From Candidatus Omnitrophota bacterium (lineage in GTDB: Bacteria > Omnitrophota > Gorgyraeia > B26-G9), in assembly GCA_043814605.1 (NCBI GenBank), contig JBDRJV010000007.1, forward strand, positions 3,354 through 67,353: a stretch of 64,000 bases of DNA. Direction: 5' to 3'. The position numbers were made by a program, and so were the translations under genes. This document shows, in pieces, positions 7,253 through 47,070 of the stretch. How positions within the stretch are numbered: the stretch's first letter is position 1; each line of letters opens with the position of its first letter. The notes under the pieces were generated by a model. It saw only the letters and a program-made list of their open reading frames with translations, did no database searches and was not told the DNA's origin.

Positions 7253-8125
7253 ATGTATACAAGGAAAATATCTGGTTTAAGGATTATTCAGAGATCATGG
7301 CTAGGATGTTTTAATCTGATATTTGGGAAACCCGTAATTGTCTATCCTTTTTTATTTATAAGTATTTTAGAATTAATAAGCATTTTAACTTTATTCCTAT
7401 TCATCCAGCCGCCTTTAGTTAAATATATTAATCCGATTGTGTTACGTTTCTGGGGAGAGAAATTTTTACATTATCCTTTAAATCTGGTTTTATTATCCCG
7501 TCTTTTTTCCTATCTTCAATTAGCAGTTTTAGTCATATTTGGCACTTTTGCTACGGGGATGACGATAAATATGTCTGCGGATTACTTCCTCAATAACCAG
7601 TTTTCCTTTAAAAAAGCGGTATTAGCCACGATTACTAAATATGTGAGTTTATTAATAATCTCATTATTAATATTCTTCCTTTTACATCAGAGCCAAGTAT
7701 TAGAAAATAGAGTACTGCTTAAAATATTAAATAGGGGAAGGTCTTTTTTAGGAGTGGGAGTAGAAGATTGGAAAACGCTTTTCCTTGTATTTTCTGTGGT
7801 TGTTTCGGGTATTATCCAAACAATATTTATATTTATACAGCCCGCAATCATGATTGAAAATAAGAACTTTTTTTTGGCTATTTTTAGGAATTTAAGTTTT
7901 GTAATGAGAAACTTATTTTCCGCTTTAATATTAACAATTATCCCTTTAACTGTATTTATTCCGGTTGTGTTGCTAAAAAGTAATATGATTGTTCTGATGA
8001 ATAGGCTTATTCCGGAAATAGTTTTTATCATACTTATTGCGGGGGTTTTTATTTCGTTTTTTATAAATTTAGTGATTACAATTTCTATAACTAAAGCATA
8101 TTTAGTAATAAAGAATGATAAATGA
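7253..8125 (+). CDS. Polytopic integral membrane protein, function unknown
   Basis: 290-aa ORF with eight or more hydrophobic helices. It sits in the exosortase locus. Confidence 0.45.
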   Translation: MYTRKISGLRIIQRSWLGCFNLIFGKPVIVYPFLFISILELISILTLFLFIQPPLVKYINPIVLRFWGEKFLHYPLNLVLLSRLFSYLQLAVLVIFGTFATGMTINMSADYFLNNQFSFKKAVLATITKYVSLLIISLLIFFLLHQSQVLENRVLLKILNRGRSFLGVGVEDWKTLFLVFSVVVSGIIQTIFIFIQPAIMIENKNFFLAIFRNLSFVMRNLFSALILTIIPLTVFIPVVLLKSNMIVLMNRLIPEIVFIILIAGVFISFFINLVITISITKAYLVIKNDK

Positions 8126-23409: not shown

Positions 23410-23934
23410 ATGATTGAATTATACATTCTCCTTTTGATTATGATTATCGCTTCAATTGCGGCGCTGGAAGTTAACGATTTGCTTTCTTCTGTGGTTGTAA
23501 TTGGTGCGGTAGGGTTATGTTTAAGTGTCGGATTTTTGCTTTTAAAAGCTCCGGATTTAGCAATTACACAATTGATTGTAGAAATTGTGCTGGTAACAAT
23601 CCTGCTCAGAGCTACATTGACACAGGATCAACATTGTTTTAAAAATAAAAGAGATTTTTATAAACTATTCTTAGTTATTCTGTTAATTAGTTTATTCTTG
23701 TCGGCTGCGTACGTTGTGATTAATGACCTGCCTATTTTTGGCAAACCTTTAATGCGTGCAAGTGAAACTTATTTAATGCAGGAATTAAAAAATAAAAAAG
23801 TTACTAATTTGGTATGTTTAATCAATCTAAAGTACATGATTTTAGACACATTTGGGGCAATGGTTACGTTATTCAGCTGTGTAATCAGCGTTATTTTATT
23901 GAGCCGAAAAAATCCAGAGGAGGATGATTTTTGA
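23410..23934 (+). CDS. Mrp/Mbh-type membrane subunit (MrpB-like DUF4040; MbhD-like)
   Basis: LLKAPDLAITQLIVE matches the DUF4040 APDVALTEA motif. Three or four TM helices. Confidence 0.55.
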   Translation: MIELYILLLIMIIASIAALEVNDLLSSVVVIGAVGLCLSVGFLLLKAPDLAITQLIVEIVLVTILLRATLTQDQHCFKNKRDFYKLFLVILLISLFLSAAYVVINDLPIFGKPLMRASETYLMQELKNKKVTNLVCLINLKYMILDTFGAMVTLFSCVISVILLSRKNPEEDDF

Positions 23935-24419
23935 AAAAAGAAAATCTAAACACAAAGCAAAAAACAGCAGATATGAACACAGAGAAAGGCATGAGCATTA
24001 TTATTAAGACAATTACCCGAATAACTGTGGGAATACTTTTTCTTTATGGAGTGAATATGGTTTTACATGGGAATATTAATCCGGGGGCAGGATTTGCCGG
24101 AGGCGGGATTATTGCCTTGGCTTTTATTAATTTAATTTTAGCTTTTGGCAAGGATGCGGCATTAGAAAAACTGAACCACACCGGGGCGGGAATTATTGCG
24201 GGATTAGGTTTATTTATGTTTTTAGTTTTGAGCATTATTGGTTTCTACGAAGACAGCTTTATCAAATATTTTAAACAGGACAACACATTGATTACAGAAT
24301 TTATGGCGGGAAGCAGGGTTACATTATTTAATATTAGTATTTGTGTGGAAGTCGGAGTAGGAATTTTTGCAATTTTTTTTAGCTTAATTACTTTAAAAAT
24401 TATCGAGGGCAGGAAATGA
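23931..24419 (+). CDS. Na+/H+ antiporter subunit B homologue (MnhB/MrpB; MbhE-like)
   Basis: HGNINPGAGFAGGGI matches the MnhB HGxxTPGGGFQGG motif. TTG start with a GGAGGA RBS. Confidence 0.7.
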   Translation: MKKENLNTKQKTADMNTEKGMSIIIKTITRITVGILFLYGVNMVLHGNINPGAGFAGGGIIALAFINLILAFGKDAALEKLNHTGAGIIAGLGLFMFLVLSIIGFYEDSFIKYFKQDNTLITEFMAGSRVTLFNISICVEVGVGIFAIFFSLITLKIIEGRK

Positions 24420-24742
24420 TATACTTTTTATGTTTTGTTCTGTTTTGCGTAGGAATATACGGGTTGTTGATAAAGAAAAATATTATCAAATTAATCATAA
24501 GTTTAATTATTATTAATTATTCAATTCATATTTTTCTGATCCTGATCGGGTTTAGATGGCAGGGGGCAGCGCCGGTACTCGAAACCGGGGGCAAATTAAC
24601 GCTTATTGTGGATCCTTTGCCGCAAGCAATTGTTCTGGTTTTGCTAATTGTGAATATGTCGGCAATAGCATTATTAATTGCCGTAGCGATGAAGCTTTAC
24701 CAGAAATTTAAAACATTTAATATTAAAGAAATGAAAAATTAA
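24416..24742 (+). CDS. MrpC/NuoK-like small membrane subunit
   Basis: 108 aa, three TM helices, NuoK-like. Its position is after MrpB. Confidence 0.55.
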   Translation: MIYFLCFVLFCVGIYGLLIKKNIIKLIISLIIINYSIHIFLILIGFRWQGAAPVLETGGKLTLIVDPLPQAIVLVLLIVNMSAIALLIAVAMKLYQKFKTFNIKEMKN

Positions 24743-24747
24743 AACAA

Positions 24748-26265
24748 ATGCAATTATTACCTTTATTTATAATCATCCCTGTATTGGCCAGTTTAATCAC
24801 GGCAATTATTGCGCGTCAGAATAATAAAATTGCTGATTTTATTTGTTTTTTAGCCGGAATATCCTTATGGGGATTATCAGTATATTTGCTTATTGTTTTT
24901 AAAAATCAGGCGTTGCTTGTTTTTGCGCAAAGCAGATGGGGGTGGTCGGAAGGAGTTTTATTAGTCGCAGATGGGTTAAGCATAGTTTTATTAAGCATGG
25001 TTTATTTTTTATTTATGAGTATGTTCATATATAATTTTAGATTCCTAAAGGCAGCGGAACAAAGATGGGGATATCACGTAATAGTTTTATTATTGTTAAC
25101 CGGCATTAACGGAGTATTAATAGCGGCAGATATATTTACAATGTATGTTTTTCTGGAAGTCGCGGTTATTGCTTCTTATGCTTTGGTAATTTTTAGAAAT
25201 AAAACAAGAGCATTTTTGAGTTTTTTTAAATATATGGTTACGGGAATATTTGCTTCGGCTTTAATTTTAATGGCAATTGCGGTTTGTTATAGTTATGTGG
25301 CTACCTTAAACATGGCGGAAATCTCGCGTCAAATATCAATACGCGCTGTAAATAGTAATCTTTTATCTGAGAATCCCGTAGTTTGTTTCATGGGAATTTT
25401 ATTTGCTTTAGGTATTGGCTTAAAAACAGGGTTGATTCCTTTTTTAAGTTCGATTTCTAATATCCAGGTGCAAACGAAAACTCCGGCAACAAATATACTT
25501 TCCGTCCTTTTCCTGCCGGTGATTGGAATATACCTTTTTCTGCGGATATTTTTCAATGTACTTATGTTAGGAACAGAATTTTCTAATTTTATTATTTTTT
25601 GGGCAGTTATGTTAATATTCACAGGCATAATTCGGGCGATGTTTAAAAATAATTTTAAGGAAGTTTTAGCTTGCGTTTATATTACAGAAATTGGTATTTG
25701 CTTATTAGCTATCGGTATTGGCAACCTGCTGACAATTACGGCTGGGTTAATGCATCTTTTTCATTATATGATTAACCGGGCTGTTTTAAATTCTTATGCG
25801 GGTATTTTTGAATATACACAGGGAACTACAGATTTTATTCTGATAAAAGGTTTTAAAGTTAAAATGCCGGTAATCGCAATCACTTCGCTGATTGGGAGTT
25901 TTTCATTTGTGGGTATTCCTCCGTTTTCTGGCTTTTGGACAAAGGCTGCAATTGTGGCCGGAGCAGAGCAAGCGGGTTTTCAGTGGGCCCTGCCGTTTAT
26001 GGTAATTGTAAGTTTAGGGAGTTTTATTATTTTTTTTAAAGTCCAATCCCGCATATTTTTTAATTTTAATAAAAATAATGAAAAGCTGCCTTCCCGGCAA
26101 GGAATACCTTTGCTTATGAAAACTGCAATGGTTATCTTAGCTTTTGTATCTTTATTAATTAATGTTTTGTGGTTAATCCCAGAGGAAGAAATGTTTTTAA
26201 CTCCCATTGCGAAAACGATCAAAAACAGTAAGGATTATGCAAGCCGTATCATGGATATATTTTAA
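24748..26265 (+). CDS. MrpD/NuoL/M/N-family proton-translocating antiporter-like subunit (the only one in the cluster)
   Basis: 505 aa with about 14 TM helices and complex I antiporter-family topology. Confidence 0.75.
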   Translation: MQLLPLFIIIPVLASLITAIIARQNNKIADFICFLAGISLWGLSVYLLIVFKNQALLVFAQSRWGWSEGVLLVADGLSIVLLSMVYFLFMSMFIYNFRFLKAAEQRWGYHVIVLLLLTGINGVLIAADIFTMYVFLEVAVIASYALVIFRNKTRAFLSFFKYMVTGIFASALILMAIAVCYSYVATLNMAEISRQISIRAVNSNLLSENPVVCFMGILFALGIGLKTGLIPFLSSISNIQVQTKTPATNILSVLFLPVIGIYLFLRIFFNVLMLGTEFSNFIIFWAVMLIFTGIIRAMFKNNFKEVLACVYITEIGICLLAIGIGNLLTITAGLMHLFHYMINRAVLNSYAGIFEYTQGTTDFILIKGFKVKMPVIAITSLIGSFSFVGIPPFSGFWTKAAIVAGAEQAGFQWALPFMVIVSLGSFIIFFKVQSRIFFNFNKNNEKLPSRQGIPLLMKTAMVILAFVSLLINVLWLIPEEEMFLTPIAKTIKNSKDYASRIMDIF

Positions 26266-26759
26266 TGAAAAGAAAAACAGTTTTGTTTATAATTTGTGTT
26301 CTAATTTGGTGCGGATTAAATTGGCCAATCAATCGGAAATGGTTAATTATCGGCTTGGGAGTGAGCACGATTATTGCTTTAGGCTCAGGTGATATTTTTA
26401 TCCGGCGCCCCCATATTTTAATTCATTTTAAAAGATATTTTTGGCTGATTTACTATTTAGCTTTTCTTTCAACTCAAATAATAAAAGCTAATATTTATAT
26501 TATTTATTGTCTTTGCCAGCCGGCTTTATCACTGCATCCGGGGATTGTAAAAGTTAAAACAAGAATAAGAAGTGAAATGGGTCTGACTGTTTTGGCTAAT
26601 TCGATAACTTTTTCCACAGGAACTTGCGTTGTTGATATCGATAACGCTAATGGATATATATATGTACATTGGATGGATGTTAAAAGTCAAAGTATAAAAC
26701 CGGCAACTGAACTGATTGTTGAGAAATTCGAAAAAATATTAAGAGAGGTGTTTGATTAA
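26265..26759 (+). CDS. MrpE-like subunit
   Basis: 164 aa with an N-terminal TM pair. Size and position are typical of MnhE. Confidence 0.5.
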   Translation: MKRKTVLFIICVLIWCGLNWPINRKWLIIGLGVSTIIALGSGDIFIRRPHILIHFKRYFWLIYYLAFLSTQIIKANIYIIYCLCQPALSLHPGIVKVKTRIRSEMGLTVLANSITFSTGTCVVDIDNANGYIYVHWMDVKSQSIKPATELIVEKFEKILREVFD

Positions 26760-27117
26760 TAAAATGGTTGAAGATAAAATAGGGCAAAGAATTTATTGGT
26801 TAATGGGAATAATATTTTTAAGCTTAATGCTGATTGCTACGTTTTTATTATTTCCCTATTTTTTAGAACGGGCTTTATTTTTTCTTTTGATTTGTTGTTT
26901 ATTTGTTCTGATGCGAATGCTTATCGGGCCGGGAGCATGCCAAAGAATAGTTGCGGTAACAATCATTAGCATGCTGATTATCGGATTTTGCGGCATTCTC
27001 GCGTTCTTTACCCAAAAGAACTGGTATATTGATATTGCTTTAGTTTGGGTTTTTCAGTCTTTTATTGCCACACTTACTTTTGCAAAATTTCTCGAAGGAA
27101 AAAGATTTGATGATTAA
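26752..27117 (+). CDS. MrpF-like subunit
   Basis: Small three-TM protein in the MnhF position. Start is TTG 26752 or ATG 26764. Confidence 0.4.
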   Translation: MINKMVEDKIGQRIYWLMGIIFLSLMLIATFLLFPYFLERALFFLLICCLFVLMRMLIGPGACQRIVAVTIISMLIIGFCGILAFFTQKNWYIDIALVWVFQSFIATLTFAKFLEGKRFDD

Positions 27118-27145
27118 ATGATTATTGTAAAGCAGGAAGGAAGTT

Positions 27146-27493
27146 ATGATTGAATTAGGAAAAATATTTTTAATTTTAGGGTTGATATTTGATTTGATCG
27201 GAACAATTAGTTTAATGCGCATGCCGGATATTTATAGCCAATTACAAAGCGCGGCAAAAAGTGTAACCTTAGGGACTTGCTTGATTCTCTTTGGTGTGTT
27301 TTTAAGCCGGGGGATGAGTAGCGCTGGGTTCAAAACACTTTTGGTCCTGGGGTTTTTAATCCTGATCAGTCCTGTTTCTGTACATGCTTTAGCACGGGGA
27401 ATTCATAAAAGCCGAAACATAAACCTTAAAAACTATGTATGTGATCAATACCATGATGATCAATTAAGGAAAAAAGATAACATTTCTAATTAG
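27146..27493 (+). CDS. MrpG-like subunit (MnhG/PhaG)
   Basis: LMRMPDIYSQLQSAAKSVTLG matches the MnhG LRxPDxYTRLHAAxK core. Confidence 0.65.
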   Translation: MIELGKIFLILGLIFDLIGTISLMRMPDIYSQLQSAAKSVTLGTCLILFGVFLSRGMSSAGFKTLLVLGFLILISPVSVHALARGIHKSRNINLKNYVCDQYHDDQLRKKDNISN

Positions 27494-27554: not shown

Positions 27555-27660
27555 TCCGCGGCCTAAAACCGCTCCCATTTATGGCGCGGATAAAAGGAGG
27601 CCGCTTGAGTATTCCAGGCCAGGAACACGGGCTTTAGCCCGTGAGGGGGTCCATTAGGCA
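27555..27660 (+). ncRNA. GC-rich structured intergenic element, a candidate small RNA or cis-regulatory RNA
   Basis: GC content is locally far above the flanks. Perfect hairpin cacgggc-ttta-gcccgtg. Imperfect stem atccgcggcc...ggcgcggat. No ORF. Confidence 0.3.
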
Positions 27661-27708
27661 AAATTATATATTTTGCCCAGTTGCTTTTTTGATTAAAACT
27701 GGTAAAAT

Positions 27709-27777: not shown

Positions 27778-28020
27778 ATGCACGAAATGGGGATAGCGCA
27801 GGAAGTTTTTAAATCTGTTTTACTGGAACTGAAGGACTATGAATATAAAAAAATTAATAAAATTGTCCTGGAAGTTGGTGAATATAATTTAATTGAGCCA
27901 GAGTCTCTTCAAAATGCGTTTAGGCTGATTGCAGAAAACTCCCGGGCAAATAATGCTATCCTTGAAATAAAACAAATCCCGGGAATGGAAATAAAAATAA
28001 TACACATTGATGCAGAGTAA
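27778..28020 (+). CDS. hypA: HypA-like nickel metallochaperone lacking the zinc-finger domain
   Basis: N-terminal MHE nickel-binding motif. The N-domain and the final beta-strand (IKIIHIDAE, compare E. coli LQIRRIEIDQE) are present. There are no cysteines, so the CxxC...CxxC Zn site is precisely absent. Confidence 0.6.
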   Translation: MHEMGIAQEVFKSVLLELKDYEYKKINKIVLEVGEYNLIEPESLQNAFRLIAENSRANNAILEIKQIPGMEIKIIHIDAE

Positions 28021-29212
28021 AATTGAGCAAATTCAAATACCATTAAATAATATTTACCAAAAATCTTGGATAAAAAATAAAACGGTTTTGGCTTTAGGTC
28101 CGGAACTTAAGTCAAATTATGCTGTTATTATAAATTCTCAGGCTATTGTTTACACCGGGTTTGGAGATTTAAAAAACCCGGATAATTTTACGAGATACAA
28201 AAAACATATTTTAAAAACAATCAAAAATTTATCAAAAAAACCGCAAGTTATAGCCTGTGATTTTAATCCGATATTTTTAAGCTCCCAATTTGCCCGTAAG
28301 TTACAAGCTTCAACTTTAGGTAAAAGCAAATTAAATCCTGTATTGCATCATTATGCGCATATTGCGGCCAGCTGTGCGGTTTTAAATCTAATGCAGACAC
28401 AAGTTTTAGGTATTGTTTGTGATGGTACGGGATTGGGCGATGATGATCAGACTTGGGGCTGTGAGTTTATCAAAAAATCGGCAGGCAATTTTACACGCTG
28501 CGGACACTTAAATTATATTCCTTTGCCTGGTGCGGATTATGCGGTTATTGAGCCTTGGCGCGTCGGGCTTTCCTTGCTTTATCAAACTTTTGGTGATAAA
28601 ATATTTACTCTGGATTTAGCTTTGCTTAAACATCACCAGGATAAAACAAATATATTAGTTAAAATGATCAAACAGGGTTTTAATACGCCGATGGCTTCCA
28701 GTGCAGGTAGATTATTTGATGGAGTTGCGGCAATTTTGGGTTTTTTTAAAAAAATAAAATTTGAAGCTCAGGCAGCTGTACTTTTAGAGCAGCAGGCACA
28801 AAAAGTTATAAATTATGAAAAAGGCAAGTATGCTTATAAGATACAAAAAGCAGGTTTAAAGTTTATTCTGAACACAAATGAGTTAATTGAGGATATTGTG
28901 GCAGACTTAAGGGCTAATCAACCTAAAGAAATTATAGCCGCGCGTTTTCATAATACATTTAGCGATATGATAATAAAAATGGCGGGAAAAATTACGCAAC
29001 AAAAAGAAAATAGTAAGATTAAGGATATTGTTTTATCCGGAGGAGTTTTTTTTAATAGGATAATTTCCGATAAAGTAATCAGGGGCTTAGAAAAGTATGG
29101 ATTTAAAGTACATAAACCAGAGAACTTAATTTTATCTGATGCGGGTTTATCATTAGGGCAGGCGGTGATAGGGTATGTGTTTAGGAATTCCGGTAAAGGT
29201 AAAAAAAATTAA
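28007..29212 (+). CDS. hypF: HypF C-terminal (Kae1/TsaD-like carbamoyltransferase) domain only; the acylphosphatase, Zn-finger and YrdC domains are absent
   Basis: HHYAHIAAS, GIVCDGTGLGDDDQTWGCEF, PLPGADYAVIEPWR, SSAGRLFDGVAAILG and LSGGVFFN match the HypF C-terminal domain. Only about 25 aa precede it. Confidence 0.75.
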   Translation: MMQSKIEQIQIPLNNIYQKSWIKNKTVLALGPELKSNYAVIINSQAIVYTGFGDLKNPDNFTRYKKHILKTIKNLSKKPQVIACDFNPIFLSSQFARKLQASTLGKSKLNPVLHHYAHIAASCAVLNLMQTQVLGIVCDGTGLGDDDQTWGCEFIKKSAGNFTRCGHLNYIPLPGADYAVIEPWRVGLSLLYQTFGDKIFTLDLALLKHHQDKTNILVKMIKQGFNTPMASSAGRLFDGVAAILGFFKKIKFEAQAAVLLEQQAQKVINYEKGKYAYKIQKAGLKFILNTNELIEDIVADLRANQPKEIIAARFHNTFSDMIIKMAGKITQQKENSKIKDIVLSGGVFFNRIISDKVIRGLEKYGFKVHKPENLILSDAGLSLGQAVIGYVFRNSGKGKKN

Positions 29213-29408
29213 AGGGAATACGGCTACAGTCAGTACCGGATCTGTAGAAAAACAGATTGGTATTGAACTGACTCCGGATGTAAAAGTAGGTGATTATGTG
29301 CTTTTACATGCTGGGTTTGCGATAGAAATTATAAATGAAAAAGTTGCTCAAGAGACCTTGAAATTATTAGAAGAAATGTTTTCAATGGAAATAGATGATC
29401 AAAAATAA
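29175..29408 (+). CDS. hypC: HypC/HupF hydrogenase maturation factor
   Basis: N-terminal MCLGIP (essential Cys2), about 77 aa, OB-fold. Confidence 0.8.
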   Translation: MCLGIPVKVKKIKGNTATVSTGSVEKQIGIELTPDVKVGDYVLLHAGFAIEIINEKVAQETLKLLEEMFSMEIDDQK

Positions 29409-29428: not shown

Positions 29429-30520
29429 TTGAAGCTTATGGATAAAACTAGAAATAATAAATTAGCCAGTCAGCTCCGGCAAACGATTACCCGTTTTTGT
29501 AAAAAAATAGAAAAAAATATATCAATCATGGAAGTCTGCGGTACGCATACAGTGGCTTTGTTTCGTTCCGGGATTAGAGAAATGCTGCCTTCTAATATGA
29601 GAATCATCTCCGGGCCCGGATGTCCGGTTTGCGTAACCGATCAAGCTGATGTTGACCGCGCCATCGGTCTTTGTCAATTAGAGAATACTATTGTTACCAC
29701 TTTTGGTGATATGATGCAGGTTCCGGGGACTGAAGTTAGTTTAGAACAGATGAAAGCACAGGGCCGAGATGTACGGGTTGTATATTCTGCGTTGGATGCT
29801 TTAGAAATTGCTAAAACTAATAATGAAAATGTTATTCATATTGCGGTTGGATTTGAAACTACAGCTCCGACAATTGCAGCAGTTTTAAAAAGAGCTAAAC
29901 AAGAAAAGGTAAATAATTTTTATGTATTGAGTGCGAATAAAATTGTACCGCCGGCTTTGGAGTGTTTGGTTGCTTGCGCAAAAAGCAGGATTAATGCGTT
30001 TATTTTACCCGGACATGTTAGTGCCATTATTGGAGCAAAACCATACCAATTTCTTGCGGATAAGTATAATAAACCCTGTGTGATTGCCGGATTTGAGCCT
30101 GTAGATATTTTGCAGGCAATCGCAATGTTGTGTAAACAAATAGTCGAACAAAAATCGAGGATTGAGATACAATATACACGTTGTGTGCAAAGGGAGGGAA
30201 ACATTTTAGCTCAGAAAATATTAAGAGAAGTTTTTGAGGTTCGGGATGCACAATGGCGCGGCTTGGGGGTAATGAAGAAAAGTGGATTTTTTTTAAATAA
30301 AAATTATGCAGGATTTGAGGCGCGAGAAAATTTTAAGGTAAAAATTCCTAAGCCAAAAAAAACGCCTTGCCGCTGCGGTGATGTTTTGCAGGGGGTAATT
30401 TTGCCGCCGGAATGCAAACTGTTTCAGAATAAATGTACGCCAGAGAATCCGATTGGACCGTGTATGGTTTCAACAGAAGGAACTTGCGCAGCATATTATC
30501 GTTACGCCAGAGTTTCTTAA
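29429..30520 (+). CDS. hypD: HypD hydrogenase maturation factor (Fe-S)
   Basis: CGTHT, GPGCPVCVT, FETTAP and the C-terminal CPVC-type cysteines. ATG 29438 is an alternative start. Confidence 0.9.
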   Translation: MKLMDKTRNNKLASQLRQTITRFCKKIEKNISIMEVCGTHTVALFRSGIREMLPSNMRIISGPGCPVCVTDQADVDRAIGLCQLENTIVTTFGDMMQVPGTEVSLEQMKAQGRDVRVVYSALDALEIAKTNNENVIHIAVGFETTAPTIAAVLKRAKQEKVNNFYVLSANKIVPPALECLVACAKSRINAFILPGHVSAIIGAKPYQFLADKYNKPCVIAGFEPVDILQAIAMLCKQIVEQKSRIEIQYTRCVQREGNILAQKILREVFEVRDAQWRGLGVMKKSGFFLNKNYAGFEARENFKVKIPKPKKTPCRCGDVLQGVILPPECKLFQNKCTPENPIGPCMVSTEGTCAAYYRYARVS

Positions 30521-30540: not shown

Positions 30541-31569
30541 TTGAATGACCAATTAAAAAATAAAAACGTTACATTAGCTTACGGTAATGGCGGACAATTA
30601 ATGCAGCAGCTGATCAATAATTTGATCAAGGCTAATTTTGGCAATCCGATATTAAATAAACTGGATGATGCTGCTGTTTTAAACGGGGTTGGCTTTAGGG
30701 AACATCTTGTATTTACTACAGATTCTTTTGTGGTGAGTCCGATATTTTTTCCGGGTGGCGATATCGGTAAGCTGGCGGTTTGCGGTACAATAAATGACCT
30801 TTGCATGATGGGTGCAAAACCATTATATTTAAGTCTGAGTATGATTATTGAGGAGGGATTTGCTTTTAAAGATCTAGAAAGAATTGTTAGCTCCATTAAG
30901 AAAACAATTAAAATAGCTGGGGTTAAAATAGTTTGCGGTGATACTAAGGTTGTAAATAAAGGTAATTGTGATAAAATATTCATTAATACATCTGGAATCG
31001 GCAGTATTGATAATCGCACAAATATTAGTGCATCTAAGGCTAAACCTGATGACCTAATTATCGTGAGCGGGCCAATTGGTGAACATGGAATTGCAATTAT
31101 TAGTCAACGAAAGGGGCTCGGGTTTAAAACAAAATTGAAAAGTGATTGTGCGCCTTTAAATGATCTTGTCCTAAATTTAATGAAATATAAAAATAAAATT
31201 CATGTTTTCAGAGATCCGACACGCGGGGGGCTTGCGAGTGTATTAAATGAAATTGCGCAACTTTCCAATGTTGGCATAGAAGTTGATGAAGTAAAGATTC
31301 CCGTGAGTAATGCAGTAAAGGGCGCGAGTGCAATTTTGGGATTGGATCCTTTGTACCTGCCGTGTGAAGGAAGATTAGTCGCTGTGGTTAGCCCGGATAA
31401 AATGCCGCAAATTTTAAACTTAATGCAAAAAAATAAAAAAGGCAGGGGAGCAAGAGTTATTGGCCGAATAAAAGCCGGGCACAAAAAAGAGGTATATTTA
31501 AATACTGTAATTGGCGGCAGGCGGATTCTTGATTTACCGATCCGGGAACAAACACCGCGAATTTGTTAA
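30541..31569 (+). CDS. hypE: HypE (carbamoyl dehydratase, PurM-like)
   Basis: PurM-like fold motifs and the invariant C-terminal PRIC. TTG start 7 nt after an AGAGGA RBS, with no overlap with hypD. Confidence 0.85.
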   Translation: MNDQLKNKNVTLAYGNGGQLMQQLINNLIKANFGNPILNKLDDAAVLNGVGFREHLVFTTDSFVVSPIFFPGGDIGKLAVCGTINDLCMMGAKPLYLSLSMIIEEGFAFKDLERIVSSIKKTIKIAGVKIVCGDTKVVNKGNCDKIFINTSGIGSIDNRTNISASKAKPDDLIIVSGPIGEHGIAIISQRKGLGFKTKLKSDCAPLNDLVLNLMKYKNKIHVFRDPTRGGLASVLNEIAQLSNVGIEVDEVKIPVSNAVKGASAILGLDPLYLPCEGRLVAVVSPDKMPQILNLMQKNKKGRGARVIGRIKAGHKKEVYLNTVIGGRRILDLPIREQTPRIC

Positions 31570-31594: not shown

Positions 31595-32401
31595 ATGATC
31601 GTAAGAGAAGCAGATATTACCCGGGCAATAATCAAAACAGCTACGGATGAATTACTTGATAATATTGAAGTGGATGTGATCATTGCTGGCGGCGGTCCCG
31701 CCGGACTTACGTGTGCGCGTTACTTAGGTCAAGCGGGGAAAAAAGTTGTACTTTTTGAGCGTAAATTAAATTATGGGGGGGGAATGCCGGGCGGAGGGAT
31801 GTTATTTCCCCGGATAGTGATTGAGAAACAAGCAAAATCAATCCTTTCTGAAATAAATGTGAGATTAAAACCTTATGATAAAAATTATTACACTGCAGAT
31901 TCAGTGGAAGCAATTTCTAAAATGGGTGTTGCAGCAATCGATGCTGGATTAAGAATATATCCTGCAGTTACAGTTGAAGATTTGGTGATTCGAGCGAATA
32001 ATAAAGTGCAAGGTGCAGTAATAAATTGGTCTGCAGTACAAATTGCCGGATTACATGTTGATCCATTAGTAATTATGTCTGAATACGTTGTGGATGCGAC
32101 CGGGCATGATGCCGATATTACAAATACGTTATTAAGAAAGAATCCTAATGTAAAACTAAAAACAAAAACAGGTAAAGTTATAGGTGAAAAATCAATGTGG
32201 GCTCAGCAGGGAGAAAATTTAATTCTGTCTAATACAAAGGAAGTTTTTCCCGGGCTTTTTCTGGCGGGTATGGCGGTTAATGCTGTTGCCGGGGTACCAC
32301 GGATGGGAGCTGTTTTTGGCGGTATGCTGCTTTCGGGAAAAAAAGCGGCAATGCTAATTTTAGCCAGATTAAATAATAAAAAGAAAAGAAAGTTAAATTA
32401 A
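31595..32401 (+). CDS. thi4: Thiamine thiazole synthase, Thi4 family (archaeal/eukaryotic type)
   Basis: VDVIIAGGGPAGLTCA FAD/NAD Rossmann motif and Thi4-family spacing. AGGAGA RBS. Confidence 0.8.
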   Translation: MIVREADITRAIIKTATDELLDNIEVDVIIAGGGPAGLTCARYLGQAGKKVVLFERKLNYGGGMPGGGMLFPRIVIEKQAKSILSEINVRLKPYDKNYYTADSVEAISKMGVAAIDAGLRIYPAVTVEDLVIRANNKVQGAVINWSAVQIAGLHVDPLVIMSEYVVDATGHDADITNTLLRKNPNVKLKTKTGKVIGEKSMWAQQGENLILSNTKEVFPGLFLAGMAVNAVAGVPRMGAVFGGMLLSGKKAAMLILARLNNKKKRKLN

Positions 32402-32419
32402 TTACCGGAGGTTAGAAAA

Positions 32420-33619
32420 ATGGCCAAAACTATAGCTGAAATTAATAATAAAATTAAAAAAGGCGAAGCTGTTGTTGTTACTAAAGAGGAAATGCTGGAA
32501 ATTGTGAAAAAAAAGGGGACAAAAAACAGCGCAGAATATGTAGATGTTGTTACAACAGGAACTTTTGGCCCGATGTGTTCCTCAATGGCAATTTTTAATA
32601 TTGGCCATTCAAAACCAAAAATTAAAATACAAAAGGCTTGGCTGAACGATGTTGAATGCTATTGCGGCTTGGCAGCGGTGGACATGATTATCGGAGCTAC
32701 TGAATTATCAACTAAAGATCCGGCTAATACTTTTGGGCCCGGAGAGTTTAAATACGGGGGAGCGCATGTAATTGAAGATTTGGTGGCGCATAAGGATCTT
32801 AAACTAAAGGCAATTGGTTATGGAACAGATTGTTATCCCCGTAAAGAATTAGAAACTTTTATAAATTTAGATGATTTAAATGAAGCCTGGCTGACTAATC
32901 CGCGTAACGCCTATCAAAACTATAATGTTGCCGTGAATCTTTCGGATAAAACAATTTACACTTATATGGGTGTTTTAAGGCCGGATTTATCAAATGCAAA
33001 TTATTGCAGTGCCGGCCAGCTTTCTCCGTTATTAAATGACCCAGGTTTTAGAGCCATAGGTATTGGTACAAGAATTTTTCTCGGGGGAGGAATCGGGTAT
33101 ATTTTCTGGCACGGGACTCAGCATACCACTGATGTTAAGCGTACAAAAGGCGGAGTGCCTGTTACGCCTTCCGGAACTTTGGCCGTCAACGGCGATTTAA
33201 AAGGCATGAGCCAAGAATGGTTAAGGGCAGCTTCAATGCAGGGTTACGGAGTAAGTCTGGCAGTAGGGATTGGGGTGCCGATACCGATTATTGATGAGGA
33301 AATGGTCAACAGTGTATGCGTACGGGATGAGGAAATTTTTACGCAGATTATTGATTATAGCCATGATTATCCTGATGGTAAATCAAATTCCTTAGGACAG
33401 GTTAATTATGAACAGCTTAAGTCCGGATTGATCAATATTAAAGGCAAAACTGTGCCTACAGCAGGGCTTTCCAGCTACTACAAAGCTAAGCAAATATGCC
33501 AAATTTTAAAGGAAAATATTCTTAAAGGAGATTTTAGTTTAACCGAACCAGTACACCCCCTGCCACGGGAAGGTTCCGGCGTTAATTTTAAAGCTTTAAA
33601 AATGAAAAATGTTAAGTAA
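32420..33619 (+). CDS. COG1900 / DUF39 protein (homocysteine-biosynthesis / L-aspartate-semialdehyde sulfurtransferase family)
   Basis: The N-terminus EINNKIKKGEAVVVTKEEM...VDVVTTGTFGPMCSSMA is characteristic of COG1900. Confidence 0.7.
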   Translation: MAKTIAEINNKIKKGEAVVVTKEEMLEIVKKKGTKNSAEYVDVVTTGTFGPMCSSMAIFNIGHSKPKIKIQKAWLNDVECYCGLAAVDMIIGATELSTKDPANTFGPGEFKYGGAHVIEDLVAHKDLKLKAIGYGTDCYPRKELETFINLDDLNEAWLTNPRNAYQNYNVAVNLSDKTIYTYMGVLRPDLSNANYCSAGQLSPLLNDPGFRAIGIGTRIFLGGGIGYIFWHGTQHTTDVKRTKGGVPVTPSGTLAVNGDLKGMSQEWLRAASMQGYGVSLAVGIGVPIPIIDEEMVNSVCVRDEEIFTQIIDYSHDYPDGKSNSLGQVNYEQLKSGLINIKGKTVPTAGLSSYYKAKQICQILKENILKGDFSLTEPVHPLPREGSGVNFKALKMKNVK

Positions 33620-36888: not shown

Positions 36889-38190
36889 ATGGGCGAAACT
36901 TTTACAGGTGGAAAACATTTAGAAAATTATAAATATTTGAGTAAAGATGCCCGGATTACAGTGATGCCAATACCTGATCAAGTAATCATTCCTTTATCTC
37001 AACATACAGGATCAATAACTCAACCTGTTGTAAAAAAAGGGGATAGGCTAAAAGTAGGCACTGTTATTGGTACAACAGATAAGTTTATTTCCGCAATTGT
37101 GCATTCGAGTGTTTCCGGGACAGTAAGTAATATTGTTGATTATAATCATCCTGTTTTAGGGCAATCTCCCTCTGTAATTATTGATTCTGATGGAAAAGAT
37201 GAGCGGGAAAATACAATAATTCCGAGAAAAGTAGTGGATTCTTTAGATAAAGATAAATTACTAGAAATTATTAAACAAGCAGGTATTGTAGGTTTAGGCG
37301 GAGCAGCTTTTCCCACGCATGTGAAATTGAATCCGCCTAATCCAGTAGATACATTAGTGATTAATGGGGCTGAATGCGAGCCGTATTTAACCTGTGATTA
37401 TCGTTTAATGATTGAACATACTAATGATATTTTAAAAGGAATTTTACTGCTAAAAAAAATACTTTCTGTTTCTTTAGTGCTGATTGGTATTGAAGAAGAT
37501 AAATCAGAAGCAATGAGTATGATGCGGAATAAAATTGTTGAAAGGGGTTTAGCGGCATTAAAAGTTATCCCGCTTCAGGCAAAGTATCCGCAGGGAGCAG
37601 AAAAACAATTGATTAAGGCTACTTTAGACCGGGAAGTTCCCTCAGGCAAGCTTCCTTTTGATGTCGGCGTGGTTGTGTGTAATGTGGGAACAGCCTATGC
37701 AGTATACGAAGCCGTATATTTAAGTAAGCCACTTTATGAAAGAGTTATTACTGTAACCGGAAATCCGATTAAGAATCCCTCCAATCTAAGAGTAAGAATC
37801 GGGACTAGATTTTCTGAGATAATTTCTTATTGCGGTTTAAAGACTCAGGCCATAGGAAAAATAATTATGGGAGGGCCGATGATGGGCTTGGCCCAATTTA
37901 CAGACGATGTTCCAGTAATTAAAGGGACTTCGGGGATTCTTTTGCTAAGCTCAAAAGACAGTACAATGAGTGAACCAGGGCCATGTATTCGTTGTGGCCG
38001 CTGCGCTACTTTATGTCCTGTAGGGATGTTACCTTATGCGTTAAGCTTATGTGTCGAAGCAAAAAAAATAGATCAAACGCAAATTTATAATGCGCAAGAT
38101 TGCATGGAGTGCGGAATTTGCACTTATGTTTGCCCGGCAAAAAGAAAAATTTTAGAAAGTATCCGGTTGGTAAAGGCGGTTATGAAATGA
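36889..38190 (+). CDS. rnfC: Rnf/Nqr-type complex subunit C
   Basis: GIVGLGGAAFPT (NADH/FMN site), NGAECEPYLTCD, and two 4Fe-4S motifs CIRCGRCATLCP and CMECGICTYVCP. Confidence 0.85.
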   Translation: MGETFTGGKHLENYKYLSKDARITVMPIPDQVIIPLSQHTGSITQPVVKKGDRLKVGTVIGTTDKFISAIVHSSVSGTVSNIVDYNHPVLGQSPSVIIDSDGKDERENTIIPRKVVDSLDKDKLLEIIKQAGIVGLGGAAFPTHVKLNPPNPVDTLVINGAECEPYLTCDYRLMIEHTNDILKGILLLKKILSVSLVLIGIEEDKSEAMSMMRNKIVERGLAALKVIPLQAKYPQGAEKQLIKATLDREVPSGKLPFDVGVVVCNVGTAYAVYEAVYLSKPLYERVITVTGNPIKNPSNLRVRIGTRFSEIISYCGLKTQAIGKIIMGGPMMGLAQFTDDVPVIKGTSGILLLSSKDSTMSEPGPCIRCGRCATLCPVGMLPYALSLCVEAKKIDQTQIYNAQDCMECGICTYVCPAKRKILESIRLVKAVMK

Positions 38191-39170
38191 CATTAAATTT
38201 TAAAAATAATATTATTTTGAGCAGTTCCCCTCACTTACGGAGTCCGGAAACAACATCTAAAATTATGTGGACTGTATTCTTTTGTTTGATTCCTTCAGGG
38301 CTTGTCAGTATCTATGTTTTTGGTATTTCAACCTTGTGGATTATGCTCAGCGCAGTACTGGGGGCAATGCTCAGTGAATGGATATGTTCACAAATACAAA
38401 AAAAACCCGCTACACTTAGTAACGGAAGTGCGGTTTTAACGGGATTATTATTAGCTTATAATCTGCCGCCGGGCTCTCCTTTGTGGATGGCTTTTTTAGG
38501 ATCATGTGTTGCCATAATTTTGGGAAAAGTTGTTTTTGGCGGTTTAGGTTTCAATATTTTTAATCCTGCTTTAATCGGCCGCGTATTTTTAATGGCGAGC
38601 TTTCCGGTATTAATGACACGCTGGCCAGCACCTTTTCAGTTAGACGCTGTAACTGCTCCTACGCCATTAGCTATACTTAAAGATAGTTTTAGTCAAGCCC
38701 CCATTCTAGATAAAGCAGAAATTATTCATTACTCAATACGAGATTTAATCCTCGGGTTTAGGGGCGGATGCATAGGAGAAGCATGTATTTTAGCTTTAGT
38801 GATTGGCGCAGCTTTTTTAATGCTTAAAGGATATATTTCCTGGCATATCCCAGGTAGTTTTATCGGCACGGTTGCTGTTTTTACCTGGATTTTTGCGGGA
38901 GAAAGTTTATTTACCGGTAATTTTTTACTGCATATTCTCTCCGGCGGACTTGTTCTCGGAGCTTTCTATATGGCCACGGATTATGTTACCGGGCCCATAA
39001 CTGTTTATGGAAAAGTACTTTTTGGTATTGGTTGTGGAATTATTACCTGTGTAATCCGGCTGTGGGGAGGATATCCGGAAGGAGTATCTTATTCAATTTT
39101 ATTAATGAATATTCTAACTCCTTTGATGGATAAATTTATCCGGCCGCGAAGATTGGGAGAGAAAAAGTGA
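38187..39170 (+). CDS. rnfD: Rnf/Nqr-type complex subunit D (covalent-FMN membrane subunit)
   Basis: SSPHLRS near the N-terminus. SGGLVLGAFYMATDYVTGP contains the FMN-attachment Thr. Start ATG overlaps the rnfC stop as ATGA. Confidence 0.85.
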   Translation: MTLNFKNNIILSSSPHLRSPETTSKIMWTVFFCLIPSGLVSIYVFGISTLWIMLSAVLGAMLSEWICSQIQKKPATLSNGSAVLTGLLLAYNLPPGSPLWMAFLGSCVAIILGKVVFGGLGFNIFNPALIGRVFLMASFPVLMTRWPAPFQLDAVTAPTPLAILKDSFSQAPILDKAEIIHYSIRDLILGFRGGCIGEACILALVIGAAFLMLKGYISWHIPGSFIGTVAVFTWIFAGESLFTGNFLLHILSGGLVLGAFYMATDYVTGPITVYGKVLFGIGCGIITCVIRLWGGYPEGVSYSILLMNILTPLMDKFIRPRRLGEKK

Positions 39171-39961
39171 ACGCAGTAATTCTGGCGCTATTATCACTAT
39201 CTGGATTAGGTTTTTGTTTTGGATTGTTATTAGCTTGGGCATCAAAAAAATTTCAGCTAAAAGTTGATCCGCGTATTATTGAGATTAATGATTTATTGCC
39301 GCAAGCAAATTGTGGTGCTTGTGGGTTGGCGGGTTGTACAAACTTTGCGGAAGCATTGGTTGAGGAAAAAGTAGAATTGAATGCTTGTGTTGTTTGTAGT
39401 TCTGATAACAAAAAGCAAATTGCACATGTACTGGGGCTGGATTCAGAAGGGGCTAAACTTGCGGCTAGATTAGCTGTGGTCAGTTGTGGCGGTGGCGTTA
39501 ATTGCAAAGATAAGTTTGAATACAGAGGTTTAAAAGACTGCCGTGTTGCCGTATTAACTATGCAAGGGAATAAGCAATGTAGATTTGCTTGTGTTGGCCA
39601 GGGCAGCTGCGTGGATGTTTGTCCCTTTAATGCAATTAAAATGGCTGATACCGGATTGCCGATAATTGATCAAGCGGCGTGTCGAGGTTGCCAGAAATGT
39701 GTGGCGATTTGCCCGCGTCAGCTAATTTTTATGATTGATCGGGAAAAGAAAATTTATATAAACTGCAATTCCCATGATAAAGGATTTGTGGTTACAAAAA
39801 ATTGTAAAGTCGGGTGTATTGGATGCGGAAAATGTGTAAAAACGTGTCCGACAAAAGCGATAAAGCTGGTGGATAATCTCGCGGTTATTGATTATAAAAA
39901 ATGCATAAATTGTACGAAGTGTGTAAAGGAGTGCCCCACAAAAACAATTGCAATTTTATGA
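39167..39961 (+). CDS. rnfB: Rnf subunit B (membrane-anchored polyferredoxin)
   Basis: N-terminal TM helix, the CGACGLAGC cluster, and three or more further 4Fe-4S Cx2Cx2Cx3CP motifs. GTG start with a GGAGAG RBS. Confidence 0.8.
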   Translation: MNAVILALLSLSGLGFCFGLLLAWASKKFQLKVDPRIIEINDLLPQANCGACGLAGCTNFAEALVEEKVELNACVVCSSDNKKQIAHVLGLDSEGAKLAARLAVVSCGGGVNCKDKFEYRGLKDCRVAVLTMQGNKQCRFACVGQGSCVDVCPFNAIKMADTGLPIIDQAACRGCQKCVAICPRQLIFMIDREKKIYINCNSHDKGFVVTKNCKVGCIGCGKCVKTCPTKAIKLVDNLAVIDYKKCINCTKCVKECPTKTIAIL

Positions 39962-41280
39962 ATGCCAGAAAAACATCTCATTTCCCAAAAAAAGTTGCGG
40001 CAATTATAAAAAGGGTTAATTTCAAATCTGGATTATCTTTCCTGTTAGATAATGATGAGTTGATTAAAATCGAAAAAACTCAAGCAGATCATATTTTCGG
40101 AATTGCGGTTGATTTAGGCACGACATCAATTTGTGTTAGCTTGTGTAATTTAGAAAACAAACAGGAGCTAGCCCAAGTTATCGTGAGAAATAAACAATAT
40201 ATTTACGCACAAGATATCCAGGATTTTTCGCAAACGGCGGATAAGCTGCAGCATAATCAGCAATCATTATCTCGGGAACTTATTTACTCTGTAAATAAAG
40301 CAATTAAAGATTGCCTGCGAAAATCAGGCGTAGAAGAAAATAGAATTTTTACAGCGATAGTGGCCGGCAATCCGGTAATGATCAATTTATTGTTACAGAC
40401 TGCAATAAAGACGAACCTGCTTAAAAAACAAAAAAATCAATATCAGGAAAGCTATTTATTTAAGGCTGCCATGCTCGGGCTAAATATTAATCCTCAGGCA
40501 AATATTAGATTTTTGCCAGGCATAGATTCAGTGATTGGTTCGGATACGGTTTCCGCTATTTTAAAACTAGGAATGTTTAAAACTAAAGACCAGATTCTTT
40601 GCATTGATGTGGGGATAAACAGTAAAATTATTTTGGGTAATAATAAGAAAATTACTGTAGCTTGTTCAAAGAGTAGTTCTTCTTTTGAAGGCCACTTGCT
40701 AAAATGCGGCATGATTGCTAAACCTGGGGCGATTGAATGGGTAAGAATAAATAAAGGAGAAATTAAAATATTAACCGTGGGGCATATCCGGCCGGTCGGC
40801 ATTAGCGGAAGCGGGGTTATTGATACGATCAGTGAACTGTTGAAAAATAAAATTATTAATTCTCAAGGACAGATGAAATCTGATTCTTTCGTTGTTTATC
40901 AGGATAAAAGTTCCTGCGTGGAATTAACCGCTGATGATATTCGAAAGATTCAAGTGAGTAAGGCGATAATTTTTGCGGGAATAAAAATATTAATGAAAAA
41001 TTTAAATGTGGGGTTTGATCAGATAAAGAAAGTATTTATTTGCGGGGAATTGGGCAGTTATTTGAATACTGAGCATATTGTTCTCCTGGGAATGGTACCG
41101 GTTGAATTAAAAAATAAAATCAATTTTGGCGGTAATGCCGCATTTTTAGGGGCAAAAATGGTATTGCTGAATAAAAAATATTTAAACCAAATGAATAAAA
41201 TCCAAAAATTAATTAAACATATTGATTTAAAGCAAGATCAGGAATTTTTAGGTTTGTATAAAAGAGCATTAAATTTTTAG
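39958..41280 (+). CDS. ASKHA-superfamily ATPase (DUF4445 / RACo C-terminal-domain-like), lacking a ferredoxin domain
   Basis: GIAVDLGTTSI phosphate-1 motif and an ASKHA-like second half (GISGSGVID). Translationally coupled to rnfB through an ATGA overlap. I reject the 19-aa N-terminal extension of the listed ORF. Confidence 0.5.
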   Translation: MNARKTSHFPKKVAAIIKRVNFKSGLSFLLDNDELIKIEKTQADHIFGIAVDLGTTSICVSLCNLENKQELAQVIVRNKQYIYAQDIQDFSQTADKLQHNQQSLSRELIYSVNKAIKDCLRKSGVEENRIFTAIVAGNPVMINLLLQTAIKTNLLKKQKNQYQESYLFKAAMLGLNINPQANIRFLPGIDSVIGSDTVSAILKLGMFKTKDQILCIDVGINSKIILGNNKKITVACSKSSSSFEGHLLKCGMIAKPGAIEWVRINKGEIKILTVGHIRPVGISGSGVIDTISELLKNKIINSQGQMKSDSFVVYQDKSSCVELTADDIRKIQVSKAIIFAGIKILMKNLNVGFDQIKKVFICGELGSYLNTEHIVLLGMVPVELKNKINFGGNAAFLGAKMVLLNKKYLNQMNKIQKLIKHIDLKQDQEFLGLYKRALNF

Positions 41281-46514: not shown

Positions 46515-46569
46515 ATGTATTACTCCGTTTAATCTTATAGGTGTGCCCTGAACCCGAACATAGTGAGTG

Positions 46570-46591
46570 GTTCAGGGTGGAGCTGGGGGGA
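46570..46591 (-). repeat. Direct repeat of the tRNA-Ala 3' end (CGAGTCCCCCCAGCTCCACC), 135 nt downstream of the tRNA
   Basis: 20/20 identity to the T-arm and acceptor 3' strand of the tRNA at 46726-46801. It is followed by a 9-bp perfect hairpin (46545-46576 region). Confidence 0.6.
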
Positions 46592-46725
46592 CTCGCCTAC
46601 TACGTTCGCAACATCGTGTTGCTCACTGCGCAGGCCCACCCGGCTCACTGTTGCTCACAGTCCTGCTCGCTTTTCCTCCTAAGGGTCGGCGTTCGCCTTG
46701 CTTCGAATCCCCAGAGAGAAATTTT

Positions 46726-46801
46726 TGGTGGAGCTGGGGGGACTCGAACCCCCGACCAACAGACTGCCAGTCTGCTGCGCTCCCAACTGCGCTACAGCCC
46801 C
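46726..46801 (-). tRNA. tRNA-Ala (anticodon GGC)
   Basis: Reverse complement GGGGCTGTAGCGCAGTTGGGAGCGC...CTGGCAG...GGGGGTTCGAGTCCCCCCAGCTCCACCA. It has the G3-U70 identity pair. CCA is encoded. Confidence 0.85.
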
Positions 46802-47070
46802 ATAAAGTATTATCAACTATATCAAAAAAGTAAATTTAAGTCAAATAAAATAGGGTGGAAAACAATTGGTTTTTTAAATTAAGAGAAAAAAATAAATGTC
46901 GGTTTTTTTTAAATAATAATAGGGTAAAAAACAGAATGAGATATTTTATACTGAAAATTGCGCTTGCTCAATCAATCATAGCTGTGTTAAAATAGCATTC
47001 ATTAAATTTAATTTTGCAACTAAATTATGCGAAATATTAGACTTCATGCTGAGAAGGAAGTGATTTTTTT

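Follow-up and report, generated by a model that had tools for sequence, protein, structure and literature searches.

Can a HypF protein that consists of little more than its last catalytic domain still take part in making the cyanide ligands of [NiFe] hydrogenases? HypF counts among the six maturases considered indispensable to every [NiFe] hydrogenase, and the tunnel with which it shields its intermediates belongs to the textbook mechanism. In the window analyzed here, a 64-kb stretch of a 264-kb contig (JBDRJV010000007.1) from a metagenome-assembled genome (MAG) of Candidatus Omnitrophota, the hypF gene encodes the Kae1-like domain and nothing else. We find that this short HypF is a conserved gene, neither an accident nor an assembly artefact. 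Our preferred reading, which we hold to be probable though well short of certain, is that it is a genuine, lineage-wide form of HypF: a stand-alone Kae1-like S-carbamoyltransferase, encoded in a hypA-hypF-hypC-hypD-hypE operon, that acts at the last HypF step with carbamoyl-AMP supplied in trans.

The open reading frame (ORF) opens with two consecutive start codons, TTG at 28007 (401 aa) and ATG at 28010 (400 aa). The ATG is the probable start; this 400-aa form is also the one annotated by NCBI, as 'hypothetical protein ABIG64_01650' (P0001), and residues are numbered from it throughout. Pfam finds two domains in the protein, HypF_C (PF17788; residues 24-123, 73.6 bits) and HypF_C_2 (PF22521; residues 135-385, 237 bits), both matched over their full length. 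The NCBIfam model for HypF, TIGR00143, scores 239 bits, below the full-length equivalog cut-off of 466, and aligns only from model position 389 to 739 of 741. There is no Pfam match to YrdC (PF01300), acylphosphatase (PF00708) or the HypF zinc fingers (PF07503); in the control P0135, the same search detects both the acylphosphatase domain and the zinc fingers. The first-pass annotation of this DNA had described the gene as encoding solely the Kae1-like domain of HypF, carrying the motifs HHYAHIAAS, DGTGLGDDDQTWG, PLPGADYAVIEPWR and GGVFFN, and the domain searches bear this out, as does the translation, in which all four motifs can be read. The overlap of 14 nt with hypA that it reported also holds when counted from the TTG, the hypA stop lying at 28020; counted from the ATG the overlap is 11 nt.

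A frameshift upstream of the gene could have hidden a YrdC region in another frame, as the first-pass annotation cautioned. We built a profile hidden Markov model (HMM) from the zinc-finger and YrdC parts of 11 longer HypFs, which scores 280-340 bits on full-length HypFs at other loci. Searched against the six-frame translation of the whole window, its best match has an E-value of 0.25; no remnant of a YrdC, zinc-finger or acylphosphatase domain is present, and a frameshifted or split hypF is thereby ruled out. Pfam scans of the window's remaining ORFs of at least 100 aa without a longer overlapping ORF (four small Mrp-like ORFs of 108-164 aa excepted) likewise found no PF01300. Looking further afield, there is no YrdC-type gene within 10 kb on either side of the short hypF in 10 related loci.

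Nor is the protein a misnamed TsaD/Kae1, the other identity that had been raised for it. The TsaD model TIGR03723 gives 25.5 bits on a cut-off of 296, compared with 239 bits for the HypF model, and the fold gives the same answer. An AlphaFold (AF2) model of the window HypF, with a predicted local distance difference test score of 93.8, finds its best Protein Data Bank matches with Foldseek in the HypF structures 3vth and 3vti, the latter a HypE-HypF complex, at a template modeling (TM) score of 0.83, whereas TsaD, Kae1 and Qri7 reach only about 0.5. The profile scores and the fold together rule out a TsaD/Kae1 identity.

The short form is not confined to this genome. In a database search we obtained more than 70 clusters of complete proteins starting with Met, 352-407 aa long and 32-51% identical, that contain the two HypF_C domains only. 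All short relatives with a named source come from Omnitrophota, and every Omnitrophota-named HypF among the best 120 database matches is short. In a simple neighbor-joining (NJ) distance tree without support values, the short forms make up a clade of their own, separate from the HypFs that contain YrdC. We also scanned GTDB species representatives with the clade alignment as query; the matches listed are mostly full-length HypFs of other phyla, with relatives of 50% identity missed, and we used them as a control set. Among the 80 loci listed, all four from Omnitrophota (L008, L057, L073 and L075) are short with no YrdC signal in the flanks, and some 70 loci of other phyla encode a full-length HypF or have YrdC sequence running up to a contig end or frameshift. 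Two loci, L051 and L076, open at a contig end, and their HypF could be short or long. In a library of 50%-identity representatives, 5560 HypF Kae1 domains were found at E ≤ 1e-30, and the best 150 matches to the clade profile include about 40 complete short forms. Proteins of 430-620 aa were considered as candidates for YrdC-plus-Kae1 intermediates and rejected: a Pfam scan of seven of them (440-620 aa) showed the leading domain truncated at residue 1 in every case, which marks them as fragments of ordinary HypFs lacking part of the N-terminus. We found no description of the Omnitrophota short-HypF clade in the literature.

Given that the protein has lost everything upstream of the Kae1-like domain, we looked at what the domain itself retains. 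In an alignment of 64 complete short members (352-407 aa), H113, H114, H117, D138, G139, G141, G143, G344, G345, N349 and D377 are invariant. We assign H113, H117, D138 and D377 as metal ligands because of the alignment to solved HypFs and the HxxH...D motif of Kae1 (PMC9654439); these four residues, together with G344 and G345, are common to the 64 short relatives and 62 full-length HypFs. Judged by this conservation, the metal and nucleotide site of the short HypF is intact. The canonical four-domain HypFs of E. coli (3tsp/3tsq), Caldanaerobacter (3vth/3vti) and T. kodakarensis (4g9i) have the same Kae1-like fold (TM 0.78-0.84 for 3vth, 3vti, 3tsq and 4g9i), and they have in common with the short form an HxxxH...D...D metal site and HypE as partner. 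Altogether 48 positions are conserved jointly in the short clade and the 62 full-length HypFs, and the short clade shows no new conserved charged residue, which argues for unchanged chemistry.

In contrast, another set of residues sets the short forms apart. S48, H50, H115, P374 and G378 are near-invariant in full-length HypFs and are relaxed or replaced in the short clade; G50 and F51 are the only residues whose conservation is specific to that clade. In the set of 50%-identity representatives, a His or Tyr occupies position 50 in 85 of 87 long HypFs and in 3 of 40 complete short ones (Fisher p = 5e-26). It has also been lost in separate short lineages around P0076 and P0074; sequences that merely appear short, through a mis-called start or a contig end, retain His-50. 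Over loci L007-L086 and proteins P0122-P0266, genuine short lineages lose the signature residues, while fragments of long HypFs keep them. From this pattern we infer that the five residues would serve the hand-off from YrdC to the Kae1-like domain and would be dispensable once the YrdC domain is gone. This residue signature of the short forms is new here.

The architecture itself is not new. The first-pass annotation held that all characterized HypF proteins need at least the YrdC-like domain; this is contradicted by HypF1 of Cupriavidus necator, a protein of 394 aa that consists of HypF_C and HypF_C_2 only, so that a Kae1-only HypF has been known since 1998. HypF1 has been described as 'an unusually truncated version' of HypF (PMC5350229), a protein that has a single canonical domain and 'likely requires carbamoyl adenylate' (PMC9100943, PMC5350229). 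It is encoded (WP_011153939.1) on the megaplasmid pHG1 of C. necator (Ralstonia eutropha) H16 in the order hypA-hypB-hypF1-hypC-hypD-hypE, and the organism also encodes the full-length HypF2 and HypF3. HypF1 resembles the window HypF in its identical Pfam content, its similar size (394 versus 400 aa), its slot directly before hypC-hypD-hypE and its conserved metal ligands. The two are 32% identical, and HypF1 falls outside the Omnitrophota clade in the NJ tree, which carries no support values. They also differ in their signature residues: HypF1 keeps the S48 and the HHH at 113-115 of full-length proteins, with a His near position 50 displaced by one position, whereas the Omnitrophota clade has G50/F51 and mostly Glu, Tyr or Phe at 115. 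These differences suggest that the Omnitrophota truncation is independent of that of HypF1, and older. The settings differ as well. C. necator is an aerobe with group 1, 2 and 3 enzymes that has HypB, a HypA of normal length (119 aa) and two HypF paralogues of full length; the window comes from a MAG of an anaerobic lineage with a link to group-4 enzymes, an operon without hypB and a HypA without its zinc domain. The Omnitrophota short HypF is thus a new lineage of the already known HypF1-type architecture.

The gene order hypA-hypF-hypC-hypD-hypE found in the window recurs in the related loci L001-L003 and L087-L089. HypE, 330-338 aa long in L001, L002, L087, L088 and L089, ends in the window in ...REQTPRIC, the canonical PRIC tail that carries the acceptor Cys. 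L001, L002 and L003 are syntenic with the window, with genes for PAC2, an Opp-type ABC transporter and two glycosyltransferases followed by hypA (80 aa), hypF (393 aa), hypC, hypD and hypE. Other loci tie the short gene directly to hydrogenases: in L087 and L088, group-4 hydrogenase genes come after the short hypF and hypCDE, and in L089 a complete group-4 hydrogenase with an Mrp module and a HycI protease leads directly into hypA (80 aa), hypF (358 aa) and hypCDE. The large subunits at L087, L088 and L089 retain both Ni-Fe cysteine motifs, RICGIC and DPCYCC, so these are real [NiFe] enzymes, dependent on Fe(CN)2CO. Group 3b, 3d and 4g [NiFe] hydrogenases have been reported from Omnitrophota (PMC8542988, PMC10066038). 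We found no conserved extra gene near the short hypF that might substitute for the YrdC module; the flanks vary, with glycosyltransferases, arginase plus arginine decarboxylase, or aminotransferases.

How would such a protein work? It would perform only the last HypF step, binding carbamoyl-AMP at its metal/nucleotide site and transferring the carbamoyl group to the C-terminal Cys of HypE, in the ...PRIC tail. HypE would then dehydrate this group, and the resulting thiocyanate would go into the Fe(CN)2CO unit that is assembled on HypCD. In canonical HypF, carbamoyl-AMP is a product of the protein's own acylphosphatase and YrdC modules; here it would arrive in trans through solvent, much as threonylcarbamoyl-AMP passes from free TsaC/Sua5 to TsaD. 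It might be supplied by a YrdC-family enzyme that stands alone, perhaps TsaC/Sua5 itself; another candidate is a further HypF with its gene at a different place in the genome. The first-pass annotation had concluded that the adenylation activity would come from a separate protein or by another route, which matches the published inference for HypF1.

Two other known systems come close. In t6A (threonylcarbamoyladenosine) synthesis, a split between YrdC and Kae1 is normal: the adenylate former (TsaC/Sua5, YrdC fold) and the transferase (TsaD/Kae1, Kae1 fold) are separate proteins, and a labile acyl-adenylate passes between them (PMC9654439), which serves as the working model for the feeding of a short HypF. 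That pair differs in its substrate, threonylcarbamoyl-AMP, and its acceptor, A37 of tRNA, and the window protein fails the TsaD cut-off. The O-carbamoyltransferases TobZ, NodU and CmcH carry out a two-step carbamoylation through carbamoyl-AMP with Kae1-like and YrdC-like modules; they differ from HypF in carrying the two modules, fused, in the opposite order and in carbamoylating small molecules, and their domain Carbam_trans_N (PF02543) has no Pfam match in the window HypF at E ≤ 0.01. Compared with canonical HypF, the short form is missing the acylphosphatase, zinc-finger and YrdC domains and has lost the conservation of the five signature positions, and without these domains it has no internal tunnel to protect carbamate and carbamoyl-AMP. 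Short HypFs go unmentioned in a 2025 review of [NiFe] cofactor assembly that covers the HypF tunnel (PMC12134894).

Several points weigh against our preferred reading. Carbamoyl-AMP is labile when free, and canonical HypF keeps it protected inside the tunnel (PMC12134894). In E. coli hypF mutants, the HypF1 of C. necator showed no activity and did not complement (PMC5350229), so a short HypF may depend on a helper to function. No supplier of carbamoyl-AMP was found in a search that covered 64 kb of the genome. Pfam scans of the window's ORFs turned up neither hydrogenase structural genes nor hypB. Finally, the relaxation of S48, H50, H115, P374 and G378 could mean an altered substrate or entry route instead of an unchanged reaction.

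This last point leads to one alternative, which is that the short HypF uses a different donor, taking carbamoyl directly from carbamoyl phosphate or another activated carbamate, with no adenylate and no YrdC partner. A YrdC-type gene is absent from all 11 neighborhoods examined, and the loss of His/Tyr-50, with which the other four signature residues change, is tightly tied to loss of the N-terminal domains; a separate YrdC protein docking in the manner of the fused domain should have kept these positions constrained. However, the nucleotide-binding glycines and N349 are still invariant, and the residues specific to the short forms include no new conserved basic residue that might bind phosphate. 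Direct use of carbamoyl phosphate is not known for any Kae1/ASKHA carbamoyltransferase. We consider a change of donor unlikely, though worth keeping in view.

A second alternative is that the essential work, or the supply of the adenylate, falls to a full-length HypF whose gene lies elsewhere, and that the short copy is a redundant or modulating partner of HypE. There is a precedent in C. necator, with its short HypF1 beside two full-length paralogues, and toward E. coli HypF, HypF1 acted as a competitor and not as a substitute (PMC9100943). Our view of the genome is also narrow, the window being about a quarter of the contig and a few percent of the genome; no full-length paralogue was seen in it or within 10 kb on either side of the short hypF at related loci. 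Against this alternative, Omnitrophota HypFs are all short, both those named as such among the best 120 database matches and the four loci among the GTDB matches listed. The one hyp operon seen has the short gene in the place canonical for hypF, also where the operon is fused to hydrogenase genes, and the catalytic residues of the protein are invariant across a deep clade, all of which makes an accessory role improbable in our judgment.

The weakest alternative, that hypF is frameshifted, split or decaying, or is really a TsaD/Kae1 tRNA-modification enzyme, can be dismissed as exceedingly improbable: hypA is shortened too, so that a single deletion spanning the 3' end of hypA and the 5' half of hypF is imaginable, but no N-terminal remnant exists in any frame, more than 60 independent assemblies encode complete Met-initiated proteins with one common boundary, the 80-aa HypA, minus exactly its zinc domain, keeps its MHE motif and last strand in distant loci, and both profile score and fold favor HypF over TsaD.

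The shortened HypA is a feature of its own. The window HypA retains its nickel motif, MHE, at the N-terminus, as well as the last beta-strand; the zinc-finger domain with its two CxxC pairs is gone, leaving no CxxC at all. This precise loss, with the last strand kept and the same form recurring in distant loci, rules out one deletion running from the 3' end of hypA into hypF. The 80-aa form lies upstream of the short hypF in L001 (9772-10014), L002 (7048-7290), L003, L073 (2937-3176) and L089 (9769-10011), so that this pairing spans two distinct lineages. HypA-like ORFs without the zinc domain also adjoin full-length hypF in Streptomyces (L061), Terriglobia (L068) and Chloroflexia (L085), and the Omnitrophota locus L075 has a short HypF yet a normal HypA of 115 aa. 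A homologue search with the 80-aa HypA returned the query alone, the sequence being too short for the word index. From the overlap of the two genes, hypA is probably translationally coupled to hypF. The nickel GTPase gene hypB was not found in the short-hypF operons of L001-L005 and L087-L089 either. The lack of hypB, the HypA without zinc domain and the short HypF together look like a pared-down Hyp set.

The genes of the hyp operon and the antiporter module in front of it are collected in Table 1. For hypE, the probable start is the TTG that is preceded by a putative ribosome-binding site, AGAGGA.

Table 1. The hyp operon of the window and the module upstream of it.
Feature	Coordinates	Strand	Basis
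Mrp/Mbh-type antiporter module	23410..27493	+	Pfam MbhD, Proton_antipo_M, PhaG_MnhG_YufB; directly upstream of the hyp genes
hypA, 80 aa	27778..28020	+	Pfam HypA, profile positions 1-69 of 112
hypF, Kae1-like domain only	28007..29212	+	Pfam HypF_C and HypF_C_2; TIGR00143 positions 389-739/741
hypC	29175..29408	+	Pfam HupF_HypC, 91 bits, full profile
hypD	29429..30520	+	Pfam HypD, 490 bits, full profile
hypE, carbamoyl acceptor	30541..31569	+	Pfam AIRS and AIRS_C; maximal ORF starts at 30433

In the Mrp/Mbh module, subunits resembling MbhD, MnhD and MnhG were identified by Pfam, with four small ORFs between them. Relative to L001 and L002, the module is an insertion between the glycosyltransferase genes and hypA, and it has no hydrogenase catalytic subunits adjacent to it. 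A like module in L089 is part of an operon for a group-4 [NiFe] hydrogenase, with hycI-hypA-hypF(short)-hypCDE at its end.

Between the mnhG-like gene and hypA lies a GC-rich island (27555-27690) in an otherwise AT-rich genome, with several strong hairpins and, at its end, a hairpin followed by a T-run. Its folding z-scores are -2.2 on the plus strand and -3.4 on the minus strand. It occurs once in the window and is absent from L001 and L002, where hypA directly follows a glycosyltransferase gene; a search of the island against Rfam gave noise matches only and no family. The island may be the terminator of the Mrp operon plus a leader or small RNA.

Further features of the window lie outside the operon. 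Directly after hypE, at 31595-33619 (+), are a Thi4-family gene and an HcyBio gene (homocysteine biosynthesis, sulfur incorporation), the latter in the same place in L002. At 36889-41280 (+), RnfC-like, RnfD-like and polyferredoxin (RnfB-like) genes are followed by one for an ASKHA protein of the RACo type (reductive activator of corrinoid protein); no RnfG, RnfE or RnfA was seen between them, and the arrangement is conserved in L001 and L002. Rfam reports a tmRNA match at 46726-46801 (-), with a score of 47.3 on a gathering score of 47, which is 76 nt long yet spans model positions 1-374 and lies inside the ORF at 46541-46882; the match may represent a tmRNA that is incomplete or in two pieces, or its tRNA-like part only. 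Three ORFs, at 395-2866, 7253-8125 and 59542-60573 (all +; 823, 290 and 343 aa), match no Pfam family at E ≤ 1e-4.

What would the short HypF mean for hydrogenase maturation? A bolder version of our reading, which we put forward only tentatively, is that the Kae1-only protein is the sole HypF of Omnitrophota. These bacteria would then make the cyanide ligands without the acylphosphatase and YrdC modules of HypF and without its tunnel, with a YrdC-fold housekeeping enzyme, TsaC/Sua5, moonlighting as supplier of carbamoyl-AMP or with carbamoyl phosphate used directly by the Kae1 domain, and the loss of His-50, Ser-48, His-115, Pro-374 and Gly-378 would mark a re-routed entry of the substrate.

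Because HypF1 is found beside full-length paralogues, the only exception described so far could be dismissed as redundant. A deep clade with the short form in the only hyp operon seen makes the question of where carbamoyl-AMP comes from harder to avoid, and it offers natural minimal proteins of 352-407 aa with which to test that source. The five signature positions point to residues of canonical HypF that probably serve the YrdC-to-Kae1 hand-off. They also provide a practical marker by which truncated gene calls in metagenomes can be separated from short HypFs that are genuine; annotation pipelines label many of the latter 'hypothetical protein'.

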